Origin: Oculatellaceae cyanobacterium bins.114
GTDB lineage: Bacteria; Cyanobacteriota; Cyanobacteriia; Elainellales; Elainellaceae
NCBI GenBank assembly: GCA_033764315.1
Contig: JANRJA010000167.1
Coordinates: 1-11,167 of the forward strand
Reading direction: 5' to 3'
DNA length: 11,167 nucleotides
A program made the translations under genes and the position numbers. The notes beneath the pieces were generated by a model, which worked only from the letters and a program-made list of their open reading frames with translations, made no database searches and had not been told where the DNA came from. Below, piece after piece: positions 3,126 through 11,167 of the stretch. Numbering within the stretch: the stretch's first letter is position 1; each line of letters begins with the position of its first letter.

Positions 3126-3285
3126 AGATCAGCGATTAATCGGTATACAGGTTTACGTTTATCGAATGGGGTATTGAGTGGGGCGATCGCTCTGTTTCTG
3201 ATTTGCCTATAGGTTGAGAGCTTTAGAAGCCAGGAATTTAAATGGCAACAAACTTTGTAGATAGGGTTTGACGGCATCCAGAGTC

Positions 3286-4632
3286 ATGAAAAAAAGTAAA
3301 CAAGTTCGCCCGATTGCTACTTCTTTCTCTGTAAGAACTGCCGTTCTTTTAGGCATTCTCATTCTGCTAGTAGCTTGGCAAGTACCCAAATGGCAAACAT
3401 CAAATGTTGGACCCAGCAACAAAGATCAAGCGGATGTAGAAAATGCTTATCGACAAACCATACTGCAAGCGATCGGTGGACTCTTTTTCTTGGCTACTGC
3501 TTATCTCTCATGGAAAAACCTTCAAATTAGTGAGGATAAGCAAATTACGGAGCGTTTTAGTAAAGCCGTTGAGATGCTTGGAAATGAAGACTTGATTGAG
3601 GTTCGTCTAGGTGGCATCTATATTTTGTCACGCATTGCCAAAGACTCGCCTGAAGACCACTGGACAGTGATGGAAGTGTTAACTGCTTTTATTCGGGAGA
3701 GATCTGCAAGCCAGCGGCTTAAGGCAGAGGATGCAGCTGATCCTTCTCAGGAACCCGCGAGCGTCACTACAGATATTCAAGCAGCTATCAATGTCGTTGG
3801 GGAGAGAAATGTGAGCAACGACCCTAGAGGAAGACGTTTGGATCTCACTGAAGCTAACCTCGCTGGAGCTAATCTCAGCAACACCGACTTCACTGGAGCT
3901 AAACTCACTGGAGCTAATCTCAGCAACATCGACTTCACTGGAGCTAAACTCAACAATGCAGACCTCCACGTTGTTAATCTCAGAAATACCAACCTGACTG
4001 GGGCTGGACTCAACAATGCAAACCTCTGCTTTGCTAATCTCAGAAACACCAACCTGACTGGGGCTGAACTCAACAATGCAGACCTCTGCTTTGCTGATCT
4101 CGATAAGGTTGTTATTGATGAAAAAACGCAGTTGGATGCTAAATGGCGTTTAGTTTGGAGAGTTGTTAACGAAAGGGTTACTGGTGCCAACCTTGGTAAT
4201 GAGGATCTTAGTTGTGCCAACCTAACTGGAGTTAACCTCAGCAATGCTAACCTCGGTTACGCCAATCTCAGCAAAGCTATCCTTGACAGTGCTAACCTCA
4301 CTGAAGCCAATCTCAGTGGTGCTAACCTCGTTGATACTGACCTCAGGAGAAGTAACCTCACTGAAGTCATCCTTAACGGTGCTGACCTCACTGAAGCCGA
4401 TCTCCAAAACGCTATCCTGTGTAAAGCCGCCCTCAGTGGTGCCAACCTCACTTTCGCGTCTCTCGATGGTGCTAACCTCAATAAAGCCGACTTTAGTGGT
4501 GCTACTCTCAAATGGACTAGTTTCAGTAATGCTAAAAACTGGACAGATGAACAATTGGACACTGCCAAGCTTTGTAAAACTCAACTGCCAGAGGGGAGTA
4601 ATCTAGACCCAGATCGAGATTGTTCAAAATGA
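3286..4632 (+). CDS. Pentapeptide-repeat protein with N-terminal hydrophobic segments
   Basis: Two hydrophobic stretches, then the QITERFSKAVEMLG...VRLGGIYILSRIAKDS...VMEVLTAFIRE...DIQAAINVVGER block, then two A(N/D)Lxx repeat tracts separated by TQLDAKWRLVWRVVN. ATG 3286 preferred over TTG 3268. Confidence 0.92.
   Translation: MKKSKQVRPIATSFSVRTAVLLGILILLVAWQVPKWQTSNVGPSNKDQADVENAYRQTILQAIGGLFFLATAYLSWKNLQISEDKQITERFSKAVEMLGNEDLIEVRLGGIYILSRIAKDSPEDHWTVMEVLTAFIRERSASQRLKAEDAADPSQEPASVTTDIQAAINVVGERNVSNDPRGRRLDLTEANLAGANLSNTDFTGAKLTGANLSNIDFTGAKLNNADLHVVNLRNTNLTGAGLNNANLCFANLRNTNLTGAELNNADLCFADLDKVVIDEKTQLDAKWRLVWRVVNERVTGANLGNEDLSCANLTGVNLSNANLGYANLSKAILDSANLTEANLSGANLVDTDLRRSNLTEVILNGADLTEADLQNAILCKAALSGANLTFASLDGANLNKADFSGATLKWTSFSNAKNWTDEQLDTAKLCKTQLPEGSNLDPDRDCSK
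3863..4100 (+). repeat. Near-identical 45-bp and 60-bp tandem duplications inside the pentapeptide tract
   Basis: ctggagctaatctcagcaaca(c/t)cgacttcactggagctaaactca x2, then about 2.5 copies of aacaatgca(g/a)acctc...ctgactggggctg(g/a)actc. Confidence 0.85.
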
Positions 4633-7199: not shown

Positions 7200-7332
7200 T
7201 TTTCCTGCAATATATTACCCGTTCCGATAATAACTATTACGAACGTGTGCTAAATCATATCTTCTTATGATTTGAAATTCAATTAAATTGGCATAAATTG
7301 CAGGAAGTTATAATTTATACACTGTTTATGTA
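7200..7332. promoter_or_regulatory. Divergent promoter/operator region
   Basis: AT-rich; perfect dyad aaatcata-N6-tatgattt 7252-7273; inverted pair ttcctgcaat 7202-7211 and attgcaggaa 7297-7306; caattaaattg 7280-7290; TATAAT at 7309-7314. Confidence 0.65.
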
Positions 7333-7696: not shown

Positions 7697-7719
7697 AAAA
7701 CCCCGGCGTGAGCCGGGGG
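7695..7719 (-). terminator. Intrinsic terminator between convergent units
   Basis: aaaaaa-ccccggc-gtga-gccgggg; the U-tract follows the stem on the minus strand. Confidence 0.8.
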
Positions 7720-7751: not shown

Positions 7752-8177
7752 TTACCCTAAGTTTGATCGTCCTTTGAGGTAGTCTGTCACCAGGTTTCTA
7801 AGCTCTACTAAGCCTGCTGTCAGTTGAGCGATCGCCTGCATATTGACTTCTTGTTGAGCCTCAATCCTTTCCATGCGTTCTGTGTGGCGTTGCGTTGCGG
7901 CTTCTTGTTCTGCCTGCCACTCTTCGTGTTCTGTGATGCGTCGTTCGTGTGCGGCTTGCCACTCGTTATGTCGGGCGATCGCGGCTTCCTGCTGTCTCTG
8001 CCACTCTTCGTGTTCTGCGATGCGCTGTTCGTGTCGGGCGACTCCTTCGGAGAGCGTTGCTAACGCCTCACTCTGATTGTCGTTGGTGCGCTCGTGCCGT
8101 AGGTTGGACGCTGCGATTTCGAGCATTAAGGCTTCGAGTCGAGCAATGCGGCTGTTGGTATCACTAGTTTGGGTCAC
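7752..8177 (-). CDS. Coiled-coil protein with internal repeats (141 aa from GTG 8177; TTG 8192 alternative)
   Basis: HEQRIAEHEEWQ / HERRITEHEEWQ; ctgccactcttcgtgttctg occurs at 7914 and 7998 (84-bp period); the GTG aligns with the conserved leader seen in neighbours. Confidence 0.8.
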   Translation of the reverse strand: MTQTSDTNSRIARLEALMLEIAASNLRHERTNDNQSEALATLSEGVARHEQRIAEHEEWQRQQEAAIARHNEWQAAHERRITEHEEWQAEQEAATQRHTERMERIEAQQEVNMQAIAQLTAGLVELRNLVTDYLKGRSNLG

Positions 8178-8243
8178 GGTTGTAAATCTCAAATCAAAAT
8201 GACAAATGAAAAAACGTAGGGACTAGCTTAGTAGCTAATCCCT
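8175..8243 (-). promoter_or_regulatory. Conserved leader: hairpin + U-tract + UUUGUCAU + GAGAUUUACAACC-GUG
   Basis: Stem 8218-8243 (its mismatch is a G-U pair only on the minus strand); atgacaaatg at 8199-8208. Confidence 0.7.
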
Positions 8244-8272
8244 GATGATGTCTACCGCTTGTTGTGTTGAAT

Positions 8273-8713
8273 TCAAATGGTGCAAGCCATCGATTGAATG
8301 CACTCATCGGGGGTCTGTGAGAGCGACCCTTGCGGTAACGGCAAAGCCGCCCGCCTTAAGTAGTTAAAGATTCTCACCATCTGCTCACAGTCATCTTCAA
8401 TGGTGGTTGTTGCCTGCCTGGTGGCTGTTTGTGTGGTTGTTGTGGGTGCCGCTGTGGATACAGCTATGCGTCTGGCTTCAAGGGTTTGAAGTAGTTCAGG
8501 AGCTTGAGTGCGCGATAGCCTCCACTTGCCCTTAGATAATTCAGTTGTCACCACATCGCCTGCCTTAAGAAAGTCGGCTATGCCTCCAGCTTTCCAGTAG
8601 AGCCGCTCGTCTCTGTTGGCATCTATCGCTACTACAGTTGTGAACTGTGGTTCATATTGAGATTGAGCATTCTTAGCATCAAATTTGCAGGTAGCGAAAA
8701 CAAGAGTCTGCAT
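8273..8713 (-). CDS. Hypothetical protein (146 aa): beta-rich N-terminus, Thr-rich linker, helical C-terminus; possibly slightly truncated
   Basis: ATG 8713 follows the 30-bp hairpin element; the frame continues IQHNKR-TAG after the TGA. Confidence 0.7.
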   Translation of the reverse strand: MQTLVFATCKFDAKNAQSQYEPQFTTVVAIDANRDERLYWKAGGIADFLKAGDVVTTELSKGKWRLSRTQAPELLQTLEARRIAVSTAAPTTTTQTATRQATTTIEDDCEQMVRIFNYLRRAALPLPQGSLSQTPDECIQSMACTI

Positions 8714-8730
8714 GGTTTTGTTCTGGGGAT

Positions 8731-8760
8731 AATGCCGGGGCGTTACTCCCGGCTGTACGC
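8731..8760. repeat. 30-bp hairpin element, copy 1
   Basis: aatgccggggcgttactcccggctgtacgc, identical to 9572-9601. Confidence 0.95.
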
Positions 8761-9092
8761 TAGTCGTAATCAGGGATGATGATTTCAACGGGTAATCGTT
8801 GGTAGTTAAGAATCTTGCCTTTGGAGTTCAGGCAAACTCTGAACCGTTGGATGTGACAGACTTTGCTGCGACCCCTAGCGGGTATCTCGGAGAGATCGCC
8901 ATCCATTTGGTGAACGGTGCGTTCAAACGTGAGGAACCAGTCACGCTTGTTGATGTGCCTCACTGCCTCAACTAACCAGTAGTCACGCTTGAATTGGTTT
9001 GCAACTTTGCGTTGATCTAGTGTGGCTCTGGCATTAAATCCATGTAGGTTAGAGGCTTTGATTTTTTCCAATGGCTCTAGGTTTTTGATCAT
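8760..9092 (-). CDS. Hypothetical basic protein (110 aa)
   Basis: ATG 2 bp after the upstream stop; its stop codon abuts the 30-bp element. Confidence 0.72.
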   Translation of the reverse strand: MIKNLEPLEKIKASNLHGFNARATLDQRKVANQFKRDYWLVEAVRHINKRDWFLTFERTVHQMDGDLSEIPARGRSKVCHIQRFRVCLNSKGKILNYQRLPVEIIIPDYD

Positions 9093-9094
9093 GC

Positions 9095-9547
9095 CTAGTC
9101 ATCCGTTAGAGTGTTATCTTTGGCAGCGTCAATGCCTCGCATCGCCTCACGGCAAAGTGAAACAATTTCCTCATGGGGCGTTGTGCGTCGGTTGGTCAGC
9201 TCAAAGTAGCGACTGCCAATCCTGCAAAAGATGGTATGTAAGTCTAAGGTAGTTGCCTCGCAAATCATGAAGGATTCGCCACCACTGCCACTGCGCCAAC
9301 GCATCGGCGGCATGATGTTGATCATCTCGTCCCAACGCTCGTAAGTAACCTCGACTGGGGGCGTGATGGTGTTCTCGTAGGTGATTCGCTCAATCTCCTG
9401 AAAGGCTTCGTCAAAATCCCAGATCTCAGCGTCTGGATAGCGTTGGCAGATTTGCTCGAGCGATTCACCTTCGATGAATGACAAGCCAGTATCAGCATCG
9501 ATGGTGTCAATGATGTGAGTTGAACCAGGAACGTAGAAGCATTGCAT
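9095..9547 (-). CDS. DUF1419-like protein (150 aa)
   Basis: PVEVTYERWDEMINIMPPMRW...ESFMICEATTLDLHTIFCRIGSRYFE resembles the recalled DUF1419 pattern; AAGGA RBS upstream. Confidence 0.65.
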   Translation of the reverse strand: MQCFYVPGSTHIIDTIDADTGLSFIEGESLEQICQRYPDAEIWDFDEAFQEIERITYENTITPPVEVTYERWDEMINIMPPMRWRSGSGGESFMICEATTLDLHTIFCRIGSRYFELTNRRTTPHEEIVSLCREAMRGIDAAKDNTLTDD

Positions 9548-9571
9548 GGTGGAAATTTCCTTTAAACGACA

Positions 9572-9601
9572 AATGCCGGGGCGTTACTCCCGGCTGTACG
9601 C
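9572..9601. repeat. 30-bp hairpin element, copy 2, joined to the UUUGUCGU leader motif
   Basis: Identical to 8731-8760; acgacaaatg at 9566-9575. Confidence 0.95.
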
Positions 9602-9607
9602 AGTGGG

Positions 9608-9811
9608 CTATTCTGAAACCTCGAAGCTGATGACTAGCTGTGATTGCGTAGGAACAACCTCTGCTGCATCGACTCGGTAGCCTGGGCTTGCTCTCCAGCG
9701 GTCAAGCTTGCGCTGAACCACTTTTGAGGCTTTTACTAACGGGTCGTCGTCACCTGTTTTTGGTGGTTGCAACATGAGTCGGATCAGGTTGTCATCTGTG
9801 GGGTGAGCCAT
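9608..9811 (-). CDS. Hypothetical protein (67 aa)
   Basis: TAATG overlap with the upstream gene; stop 6 bp before the 30-bp element. Confidence 0.6.
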   Translation of the reverse strand: MAHPTDDNLIRLMLQPPKTGDDDPLVKASKVVQRKLDRWRASPGYRVDAAEVVPTQSQLVISFEVSE

Positions 9812-10029
9812 TAGAACGACACCTCCTCAACGAACCAGTTACAACGAGCGGCAAAGTTGCTCTCTGACTCAAGCAGACACGGCAGATCAACTGAAGCCCT
9901 GAGCTTGCAATAGCTAGGAGCTTGAATCGAAATACCAAACAGCGACAACTCTCGCGCTGGCTGGAAGTGCTTGCACATTCCGCAGACTGGCTGAACTTGA
10001 ACTGAATCAATCTGTGAGAGACTAGACAT
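9811..10029 (-). CDS. Small Cys-rich (CxxC...C...C...C) putative metal-binding protein (72 aa)
   Basis: VCGMCKHF...YCKLR...PC...RCNWFVEEVSF; GAGG RBS inside the conserved leader. Confidence 0.7.
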   Translation of the reverse strand: MSSLSQIDSVQVQPVCGMCKHFQPARELSLFGISIQAPSYCKLRASVDLPCLLESESNFAARCNWFVEEVSF

Positions 10030-10106
10030 GTTGTGAACCTCATTCACGACAAATGGAAAAAACTAAAGCGATCGCCTCGTACACGCATATGCCGGGGCGA
10101 TCGCTT
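10027..10106 (-). promoter_or_regulatory. Conserved leader: hairpin built from two HIP1 sites + U-tract + UUUGUCGU + GAGGUUCACAAC-AUG
   Basis: aagcgatcgcctcg...cggggcgatcgctt stem 10066-10106; acgacaaatg at 10046-10055. Confidence 0.7.
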
Positions 10107-10157
10107 CTTTATTGCCATGAGCAGATTTGTAATGCGCCTGTGGCTCGGCGCGGTGAA

Positions 10158-10595
10158 CTATTTAATCGGGCAACTGCATAACCCTCTGGCGATCGCTTCA
10201 AACTCTGGTCTGATGCTTTTGCCCTCTAGCCAATCGGCGCAATATTCAGCGATCAACCATGCATCGAGAACGCTGTAAATCGGAACCAGTGACCCGTAGA
10301 AGTAGTTCACAATCTCGTCTCTGGTTGGGTGAGGCTGTGGCGTGTGGGCATGAGCTACCCCAAGATGCCTGCGGATCAACCTCATATAAATCGCCTTGGC
10401 GTTGGGGCTAATGGTGCAAAGCTTTGAATCGCTTAACCCTGGCTTGTACCGAATGACCAATTCCAATCGAGCGGCGATCGCAAACTGCAACTTACTCACT
10501 CGCTCGTAGTCGTAGTGCATCCCTCGGTAAAGGGTGAGGAATGCGAAGTGGTGGTAAGCGGCAGCAATGTCGAAGCGGTCGAAGTATGTAAACAC
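10158..10595 (-). CDS. Hypothetical protein (145 aa), phage-like YFDRFDI N-terminus
   Basis: GTG start with GAGG RBS in the conserved leader; YFDRFDIAAAYHHFA...ISPNAKAIYMRL. Confidence 0.75.
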   Translation of the reverse strand: MFTYFDRFDIAAAYHHFAFLTLYRGMHYDYERVSKLQFAIAARLELVIRYKPGLSDSKLCTISPNAKAIYMRLIRRHLGVAHAHTPQPHPTRDEIVNYFYGSLVPIYSVLDAWLIAEYCADWLEGKSIRPEFEAIARGLCSCPIK

Positions 10596-10650
10596 GATGT
10601 AAACCTCAAAAACGACAAACGAAAAAGCTGAGAGCCGAAGCCCTCAGCTA
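10593..10650 (-). promoter_or_regulatory. Conserved leader: UUCG hairpin + U-tract + UUUGUCGU + GAGGUUUACAUC-GUG
   Basis: Minus strand agctgagggc-ttcg-gctctcagct-ttttcgtttgtcgtttttgaggtttacatcgtg. Confidence 0.75.
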
Positions 10651-10668
10651 GAAACCGACTAAACGAAC

Positions 10669-11026
10669 TCACGCGCCAAACACCCAGAAGCCAGCACCAA
10701 CCGAGCGGAAACCCCAAGCAGGAACCCAAGTGGAACACGGAACCCAAACCACAACGGGCAACCGAAGCCCACAGGCAAAGGCAACCGAAGCCCACGAACC
10801 GGAACCCAACCCACAGAAGCAGCGAGAGGACAGGGGAGAAGGAGCCAACCCAACCGGACACGGCTGACCGGGGAACGAAACCAACACGCCACCAGCAGCA
10901 GCAAGAGCACGAACAAACCGAATGGAACGAGCGGCAAACGCCCCACGACCGGAACCCTCAACCCGGAAAACCTCAGCACCTGGCAACGCAGACCGCACTG
11001 ACGAGTCAACACCCCGCGCGTCACCG
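10669..11026 (-). pseudogene. 3' part of a SLOG/DprA(Smf)-like Rossmann-fold gene, interrupted by an IS
   Basis: GDARGVD, FAARSIRFV, VLVSFPG and GSGSWASVAFA match SLOG-superfamily motifs; the MKFHTENC start in the ORF track is IS-derived. Confidence 0.7.
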
Positions 11027-11167
11027 CAGCAATTCTCAGTATGGAATTTCAACTGGTGTTGGGTGGGATCTCCAACTCTAGACCTTCAAGCATAAAGGTG
11101 AGCAGATGATCCCAACTGTCGAAATACAGATAACGGGTCAAGGCTCGCAAGTCATCGAAGAAGGTCT
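11027..11167 (-). mobile_element. End of an insertion sequence (ISNCY-like), continues outside window
   Basis: Abrupt compositional change at 11027; terminus CAGCAATTCTCA; transposase-like C-terminus ends 22 bp inside. Confidence 0.7.
11049..11165 (-). CDS. Transposase C-terminus (partial)
   Basis: TFFDDLRALTRYLYFDSWDHLLTFMLEGLELEIPPNTS* resembles recalled C-termini of cyanobacterial ISNCY transposases. Confidence 0.7.
   Translation of the reverse strand, partial: TFFDDLRALTRYLYFDSWDHLLTFMLEGLELEIPPNTS

Follow-up and report, generated by a model that had tools for sequence, protein, structure and literature searches.

A repeated hairpin and leader unit in a cyanobacterial array of small orphan genes: a candidate cassette junction

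We analyzed the complete contig C232 (11,167 bp; hereafter the window) of a 6.6-Mb cyanobacterial draft genome (G000); the contig is cut off at either end. The window was compared with the corresponding locus (L009) of a sister genome of 8.1 Mb (G001) and with further related loci, which are designated by L-numbers. The subject is a row of seven open reading frames (ORFs) of 67–150 amino acids on the minus strand between 7752 and 10595, together with the unit of hairpin and leader that recurs within it. A Pfam and PHROG search of the seven ORFs gave no match. The row follows the 3' part of a conserved gene, which we call the head gene. A GC-rich hairpin precedes five of the seven ORFs, and at four of these five (starts at 10595, 10029, 9547 and 8177) a common leader stands between the hairpin and the start codon. 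An initial annotation of this DNA had listed these leaders, and every string and start codon that it quoted is present on the minus strand, four of the five units having the hairpin, a box, a GAGG-type ribosome site and a start. What it called a degenerate version at 8713 turned out not to be a degenerate box. It is a 33/34-nucleotide (nt) copy of the hairpin segment at 9572–9604, which ends at CATT and has no box or Shine-Dalgarno sequence after it. The ORFs starting at 9811 and 9092 abut the upstream gene and have no leader, indicating that the leader marks modules and not each gene. The coordinates of all features are given in Table 1.

In all five units, the GC-rich stem-loop lies 3' of a stop codon. 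The annotation had noted that three of the hairpins look like intrinsic terminators. The terminator scan scored the hairpins at 10626–10649, 9575–9594 and 8218–8243 as terminator-like. The hairpin at 10065–10107 folds at about -27 kcal/mol and its loop exceeds the limit of the scanner; the 96-nt region that contains it gave an RNA fold of -32.6 kcal/mol (z -3.42). The predicted RNA stems were strong in three of the five window units (z about -3.4 to -3.6), and hairpins 3 and 4 were weak (z -0.9 and -0.5). The U-tract adjoins the stem at U1, lies 3 nt away from it at U2 and U5, consists of just ATTTGTCGTTT at U3 and is missing at U4. The distance from box to start was 13–21 nt across nine leaders of both genomes and 16–21 nt in the four G000 leaders. 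The T-run and the box were unpaired in the RNA centroid structures of seven of the nine leaders folded. In the predicted folds of U2 and of V3, a G001 leader, the box is able to pair with the ACA preceding the start codon, which would leave the ribosome site in a loop. Hairpin 1, which is also present in G001, has a C(UUCG)G loop, and hairpins 1 and 5 contain one G-U pair each, which becomes a mismatch on the other strand. These pairs, like the UUCG loop, favor folding of the sense-strand RNA over the template DNA strand. An Rfam scan of the whole window at E ≤ 1 returned 0 matches. The GCCGGG-N8-CCCGGC hairpin was seen behind differing genes in elements of four Leptolyngbyaceae genomes (window 9575–9594 and 8734–8753; L009 10404–10423; L035 10885–10904; L071 9428–9447), as if it were itself a portable module.

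We next consider how specific the leader is. The box 10-mer, CRTTTGTCRT, occurs four times in the window, always on the minus strand (8199–8208, 9566–9575, 10046–10055 and 10612–10621), compared with 0.10 expected, and none of 200 shuffles reached four. The two-box pattern TTGTCRT-N2-12-GAGRTTYAC was found three times in the window (0.00 expected). In the 6.6-Mb genome, both strands included, the 10-mer has 51 copies; C232 is the only contig with more than two, and the full setting of hairpin, T-run, ribosome site and start is absent from the copies on other contigs. The T-run joined to the box (TTTTYCRYTTGTCRT) was detected three times in G000 and three times in G001, in every case within the syntenic array, as opposed to one match per genome for the reversed-pattern control. 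Beyond these two genomes, the two-box pattern was found in 0 of 55 other family genomes, and a phylum sample of 400 genomes gave two single matches, the same as the reversed control, neither with a hairpin or ORF context. The leader pattern was likewise absent from 156 related loci that encode the head-gene family (1.33 Mb). A leader profile (R1) found its eight training sites and two weak matches (E 0.04 and 0.07) in 55 genomes and nothing in the 98 of the 156 loci that were scanned with it, and the 8-mer YTTGTCRT was about as frequent as chance predicts in the first 76 related loci. Judged by these searches, the exact leader appears confined to the present genus among the genomes and loci searched. 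A literature search with the motif strings gave primers and CpG oligonucleotides only. The 3' end of the 16S rRNA was looked for in the assembly and not found.

The space between hairpin and start is 27–40 nt, and 0 sigma-70-like sites were found on the gene strand of either array (8175–11050 in the window, and the G001 array), so the view that there is no room for an ordinary promoter stood. The T-run and box might instead form a non-consensus promoter (-10-only, alternative sigma or element-specific), each unit being its own transcription unit in the manner of a phage moron or of the promoter-early stem-loop (PeSL) cassettes discussed below. Such a promoter would account for the leader before the first G001 gene and for the TAnnnT hexamers of U2 (TAGTTT) and U5 (TACGTT), which are positioned for a transcription start at the CA of the box; TATAAT promoters also occupy the equivalent place in many related elements. 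However, neither array has a -35/-10 pair on the gene strand. In addition, TAnnnT is absent in U3, V2 and V3 and imperfect in U1, V0 and V1, and no RNA polymerase or sigma gene was recognized in the window or L009. We therefore consider this explanation improbable.

The comparison with G001 locates the differences in gene content. First, the homology that runs from the head gene continues through hairpin 1, the T-run and the box and ends after GAGG (window 10603, L009 8478), and the homology of gene 1 starts at the T-run of the second G001 leader (window 10626, L009 9062). The segment 10603–10626 of the window matches both G001 leaders, and the 583 nt between them constitute an ardA cassette; the ArdA gene follows the head gene in G001 (PF07275, E = 3.6e-23), and two boxes stand in tandem behind it. 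Second, the module of genes 3 and 3b in G000 is flanked by the 33/34-nt hairpin repeat, which ends within the box. The protein of gene 3b matches, at about 40% amino acid identity, an ORF placed elsewhere in the G001 array. Third, upstream of gene 5 the genomes agree up to ...CCCTACG, the border between the end of hairpin 5 and the T-run; beyond it G000 has the T-run, the box and gene 5, and G001 has unrelated sequence and another gene. Finally, two more homology ends fall just past stop codons. Most of the content differences, though not all, thus stop at hairpin/leader borders. Among the three readings offered by the initial annotation (antitermination or RNA processing, a single-strand promoter, and a shared recombination joint), the recombination joint was the best supported, by the ardA cassette, the gene 3–gene 3b module and the gene 5 border; one breakpoint, within gene 1, does not follow it.

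In integrons, every promoterless cassette is followed by an imperfectly conserved palindrome, attC, and a short core sequence is conserved at the border. Our units resemble them in having palindromes behind promoterless cassettes and a short core at the border, and variable stems beside a conserved box would fit either attC-like sites of an integron-type array or a similarity left over from neutral duplication. We regard both as very unlikely. No recombinase or integrase domain was seen in the window or L009 (11 kb + 18 kb), and the hairpins have perfect stems and lengths of 20–43 nt, far shorter than attC sites (55–140 nt), with neither R''/R' cores nor RYYYAAC/GTTRRRY ends. Against a neutral relic, the genes on either side and the stems are unrelated, yet both genomes have retained the leader, with a divergence close to that of the coding DNA.

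The box itself differs between the genomes in a uniform manner. All four start-proximal G001 boxes read CACTTG, whereas all four G000 boxes read C(A/G)TTTG, the third position being C or T, respectively. U1/V2 and U2/V3 are orthologous leader pairs, yet their boxes differ by genome. This uniformity across orthologous pairs suggests that the copies are homogenized within an element or that they follow a shared reader. The core TTGTCGT is kept in seven of the eight aligned leaders, with TTGTCAT in U5.

A shared reader could be a repressor encoded by the element, with the box as its operator in DNA or in the mRNA leader and the cassettes tied into a transient 'establishment regulon', as for CUP/ArdK, EGeRS2/Reg576 and RegA, the last of which is a translational repressor of phage T4. 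A short invariant core at a fixed place before each start is what an operator would look like, the box copies of one genome all differ alike from those of its sister, and lineage-specific leaders in related elements are expected if site and reader co-evolve. As far as the cited accounts describe, there are precedents in the 13-nt ArdK sites 5' of ardB, ardK and repA (PMC6289460) and in establishment promoters under repressor control (PMC8708921). Several observations nevertheless make this explanation unlikely. There is no promoter that overlaps the box, and the box lacks dyad symmetry; its spacing to the second box ranges from N2 to N8 in five two-box matches, and its spacing to the start varies too. 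No RNA-binding protein was recognized in the array by Pfam or PHROG. Two adjoining Cro/CI-type genes have an inverted repeat of their own (TTCCTGCAA/TTGCAGGAA) and no box in their divergent promoter region (7200–7332), and are therefore poor candidates for the reader.

Three known signals were also considered and, by inspection against consensus sequences, dropped as the main explanation: an NtcA/CRP-type dyad (variable spacing and poor half-sites), an HLR1-like TTTACA repeat (present in U1 only and of the wrong period) and a -10 element of the extracytoplasmic function type (GTC/CGT; no conserved -35).

To place the array among related elements, we considered the loci that encode the head-gene family. 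For eight of them, 94 of the 150 ORFs listed were scanned, the 56 shortest being dropped. The arrays downstream of the head gene encode ArdA (L020 and L028), ArdC (L102), Gp157, DUF4326, DUF7222 and a C5 methylase. DdrB-like and Rad52-like proteins occur in related arrays as well, the Rad52-like protein of L081 on the strand opposite the head gene, and SNase and helicases lie near the arrays, with a terminase in L035. Given this gene content, we take the array to be an establishment or anti-defense-type region of a mobile element, which may be a plasmid, an integrative and conjugative element, or phage-like. The analogy to a leading region drawn by the annotation holds in this respect, through ArdA in the sister array and ArdA, ArdC, DdrB-like and Rad52-like proteins and an orphan C5 methylase in related arrays.

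The same analogy had been extended to an Frpo-type promoter, and the hairpins might then be single-stranded DNA (ssDNA) signals of a conjugative leading region, either Frpo-like promoters or primase/ssi sites. ArdA, ArdC and ssDNA-binding or annealing genes in such arrays, a modeled DprA-like fold in the head protein and the placement of all genes on the same strand would suit such signals. However, helices of 6–14 bp are too short to hold a -35, a spacer and a -10 in duplex, and the longest of them (10–14 bp) leave no space for paired -35/-10 boxes; the Frpo-type promoter was not supported. The G-U pairs and the UUCG loop speak for the sense RNA, scans of the window, L009 and eight related loci revealed no relaxase, oriT or transfer gene, and several relatives are phage-like instead (terminase, Bro-N, Gp157). 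We give ssDNA signals hardly any credence.

The architecture of the unit recurs in these relatives, although its box is not kept outside the genus. Of 104 non-redundant loci, 22 have direct repeats (20 nt or longer) that lie downstream of the head gene, on the strand of that gene, and end at most 25 nt from ORF starts; the figure is an underestimate, since such a test overlooks short boxes. In 10 of these 22 loci the repeats stood at three or more starts. The controls gave 2/104 for the opposite strand and 1/73 and 0/73 for the upstream flank. In L038, a GC hairpin is followed by CTCTACTACTTAAGGA and then ATG; in L081 and L133, a conserved hairpin is followed by GGAG; and in Nostocales, GTATCCGACC stands immediately 5' of ATG, on the plus strand only and in the array only. 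Clear TATAAT promoters stand 5' of the head gene and of the following unit in many relatives, and several relatives have hairpins without a U-tract. In the Nostocales arrays, 102 of 325 homology ends fall within -90 to +15 of a leader-marked start (7.8% expected), an enrichment that is inflated by the non-independence of ends and pairs and by the tendency of homology to end at gene borders anyway. L032 places one leader after either a TATAAT promoter or a GC hairpin, which points to an mRNA-leader function.

That the sequence after the hairpin in L032 equals the predicted 5' end of its promoter-led units would also be expected if the U-rich box beside the hairpin were an endonuclease site of the ribonuclease (RNase) E type, where polycistronic RNA is cut into hairpin-protected monocistronic messages with an identical 5' end. 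The predicted folds place a single-stranded AU-rich stretch immediately 3' of a stable stem. We hold RNase cleavage to be quite improbable.

Our preferred interpretation, to which we assign a probability of about one half, is that the unit is a cassette junction, in which an RNA hairpin serving as terminator or stabilizer is combined with a standard 5' leader that also provides the homology for cassette exchange. It builds on what was observed: the make-up of the unit, a motif limited to the array, breakpoints that fall at leaders, the lack of any promoter of the sigma-70 type and an architecture shared with relatives. The array would be an operon-like row of establishment or anti-defense-type genes of a mobile element. 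In the sense RNA, the hairpin would act as a partial intrinsic terminator and as a 3'-end stabilizer for the preceding gene. The T-run, the box and GAGG-N7-9-start would form a standard, mostly unpaired, U-rich 5' leader, which would drive translation of the following gene on read-through transcripts. Because the leader is alike on every cassette, its 30–35 nt may supply short homology for gain, loss and reordering, and recombination at the leaders would keep the copies alike within one element. Termination, the strength of translation and the mechanism of recombination are the parts that we infer.

Several points weigh against the cassette junction. A terminator tail and a ribosome site leave the conservation of TTGTCGT unexplained, and this conservation, together with the genome-wide switch from T to C, fits a trans-acting reader equally well. 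Gene 4 is retained although it lacks the box and the ribosome site. The first gene of G001 also has a leader, behind a weak hairpin only, so the T-run and the box are more than just a terminator tail. One of the G000/G001 rearrangements lies within gene 1: an 87-amino-acid remnant of gene 1 in G001 is directly followed by the gene 3b homologue. The leader is known from two genomes, and the evolutionary inference amounts to one comparison. Furthermore, at least five internal terminators without promoters would cut the expression of the distal genes strongly unless they are leaky. A specific reader of the box, be it a repressor, an RNase or an unusual promoter, is thus a real possibility. A bolder version, in which the leaders are lineage-specific RNA (or single-strand) operators with an element-encoded reader, possibly the head protein, is doubtful. 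It would join the variable anti-defense cassettes into one post-transcriptional 'establishment regulon' whose site and reader co-evolve. If it were true, these elements would be a widespread undescribed mobile-element family of cyanobacteria and several other phyla.

Several known systems share traits with the unit. Phage morons carry their own promoter, REP/BIME sequences form intercistronic stabilizer hairpins, and REP elements are spread genome-wide. The unit is similar in that a gene and a terminator or stabilizer hairpin are inserted between neighbors; the differences are that it has no promoter of its own and that its leader is confined to one array. Among the closest known systems are the PeSL cassettes of T4-type phages (PMC4122927, PMC2839356). 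As these accounts present them, PeSLs are also short composite motifs with a terminator stem-loop that are repeated among small ORFan genes of a plastic region, with a lineage-specific motif sequence and motif-bounded indels between close relatives. Motif-bounded indels were found here at the ardA cassette, the gene 3–gene 3b module and the gene 5 border, with the gene 1 breakpoint as an exception. In contrast, the PeSL described there holds a sigma-70-like promoter (-35/N17/-10), of which there are 0 on the gene strand of either array; the conserved part here is the 30–35-nt leader up to the start codon, and the host element is not a T4-type phage.

The CUP elements of the ArdK regulon on the IncN plasmid pKM101 are, in the account cited, likewise short conserved upstream sequences that recur before anti-restriction and establishment genes (PMC6289460). 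They differ in being repressor sites at promoters, that of the repressor itself included; at the present leaders a promoter is lacking, and the adjoining regulators (7200–7332) have no box, though a different regulator may be involved. EGeRS1 and EGeRS2 of pLS20-family plasmids, as reported, are conserved sequences directly 5' of the ribosome sites of several establishment operons, that of ardC included, and EGeRS1 also resembles the unit in having no strong sigma-A promoter and many inverted repeats (PMC8708921). EGeRS1 is, however, 420–750 bp long and of complex structure, whereas the unit is 60–100 nt long, has one simple hairpin and stands before single genes. The Frpo/ssi single-strand promoters, in the description cited, are hairpin signals 5' of leading-region anti-defense genes that all lie on one strand (PMC11541004), as here; Frpo requires a long fold-back that pairs -35 and -10, and the stems here are 6–14 bp, with a longest helix of 14 bp. 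We read the hairpin-leader unit as resembling the PeSLs without their promoter. Literature searches, supplements not included, found no description of these arrays.

As small and fast-evolving orphans, the anti-defense and establishment genes of mobile elements easily escape detection. The conserved head gene with its repeated leaders makes it possible, from sequence only, to mark off such cassettes in cyanobacteria, a group with few known examples, and it also reveals where the cassettes are exchanged. The leaders are compact promoter-free expression modules, whose logic is either a leaky terminator with a standard leader or a specific reader.

Table 1. Features of the array and of its upstream end in the window, in the direction of the genes
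Feature	Position	Strand	Description
IS-like repeat end	11027..11167		cuts the head gene and terminates the contig; 99–100% identity over 140–142 bases to ends of contigs C1, C2, C92 and C181
Head gene, 3' part	10669..11026	minus	DprA/SLOG-like conserved adenine-poor protein, whole about 170 amino acids; 88% amino acid identity to G001 ORF
Hairpin 1	10626..10649	minus	10-bp stem, UUCG loop, then T-run; terminator-like in scan; RNA centroid -17.5 kcal/mol, z -3.45
Leader U1	10593..10625	minus	T-run; box CGTTTGTCGT (10612–10621); GAGGTTTAC (10599–10607); GTG start (10593–10595)
Gene 1	10158..10595	minus	145 amino acids, no family match; first 270 nt 82% identical in G001
Hairpin 2	10065..10107	minus	11–12-bp stem from two GCGATCGC palindromes; T-run begins 3 nt downstream; kept in G001
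Leader U2	10027..10064	minus	T-run; box CATTTGTCGT (10046–10055); GAGGTTCAC; ATG start
Gene 2	9811..10029	minus	72 amino acids, Cys-rich; G001 orthologue present
Gene 2b	9608..9811	minus	67 amino acids; start overlaps gene 2 stop; no leader
Hairpin 3	9575..9594	minus	GCCGGG-N8-CCCGGC; similar hairpins in G001, L035 and L071
Leader U3	9545..9575	minus	box CATTTGTCGT (9566–9575) abutting stem; AAGGAAA ribosome site; ATG start
Gene 3	9095..9547	minus	150 amino acids
Gene 3b	8760..9092	minus	110 amino acids; 2 nt past gene 3; no leader
Second copy of hairpin-3 segment	8731..8764	minus	33/34 identity to 9572–9604; stops at CATT; gene 4 without box or ribosome site
Gene 4	8273..8713	minus	146 amino acids
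Hairpin 5	8218..8243	minus	11-bp stem, one G-U pair; T-run 3 nt downstream; G001 match up to ...CCCTACG
Leader U5	8175..8217	minus	T-run; box CATTTGTCAT (8199–8208); GAGATTTAC; GTG start
Gene 5	7752..8177	minus	141 amino acids, coiled-coil-like repeats
Array-closing terminator-like hairpin, strong	7701..7718	minus	7 GC pairs, then TTTTTTATTT

The GT-rich stretch at 10669–11026 is not a non-coding region; it is the coding 3' part of the head gene. For the head protein, which has no Pfam domain, 181 homologues were found at E ≤ 0.001. The coding strand of the head gene contains 4.7% A in G000 and on average 3.2% over 157 loci, compared with 25.5% in the flanks. Owing to the near-absence of adenine, all three forward frames are open. 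A literature search on adenine-free genes gave nothing relevant, and a gene with about 3% coding-strand adenine across phyla is a striking feature of these elements. The adenine-poor loci (window; L009 7917–8411; L017–L178) span cyanobacteria, Competibacteraceae, Bacteroidota, Acidobacteriota and others. The AlphaFold2 model of the head protein had a pLDDT of 92. Its top fold matches were TM1055 and three DprA structures (Z 9.1–9.4, root-mean-square deviation 3.0–3.3, 122–124 residues), and weaker matches to LOG, YpsA, ShosA and ThsA-SLOG came after DprA. The Z scores barely exceed the background of such searches, and the model suggests a 'DprA/SLOG-like fold' and no further assignment.

The head gene is intact in G001 and is itself preceded by a T-run, a box and a ribosome site. 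In the window, the homology to G001 ends at 11025, and the repeat that follows (11027–11167) also matches the end of contig C23 with 98% identity over 149 bases. The repeat is probably a copy of an insertion sequence (IS) that removed the 5' part of the head gene and its promoter. It encodes the C-terminus of an ORF. Upstream of the G001 head gene lie about 750 nt of non-coding DNA (L009 7166–7916), which contain runs rich in C and others rich in G and lack a consensus promoter. This stretch, the equivalent of which is missing from the window, could hold the array promoter or an origin. Among the G001 genes upstream are those of the Bro-N/MarR and ribbon-helix-helix types. In three loci, CRISPR-like arrays whose repeat period is about 72 bp lie a few kb or less 5' of the head gene (L009 1–3300, on contig C65 of G001; L028 1–1530; L053 5938–6940).

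The remaining observations concern other parts of the window. The region at 7200–7332 between the two Cro/CI-type helix-turn-helix genes is AT-rich and divergent, carries sites resembling promoters on either strand and has the appearance of an immunity-type switch. Segments of about 35 nt, one in gene 4 (8319–8355) and one in gene 3b (8866–8901), match many sites in several related genomes at 85–100% identity, mostly 90–97%, and look like a short dispersed repeat within coding sequence. A pentapeptide-repeat protein of 454 amino acids (3268–4632, plus strand) adjoins the element, and positions 1–2955 on the minus strand encode a NACHT-type STAND NTPase with an NNH2 domain and HEAT repeats, which runs past the end of the contig.

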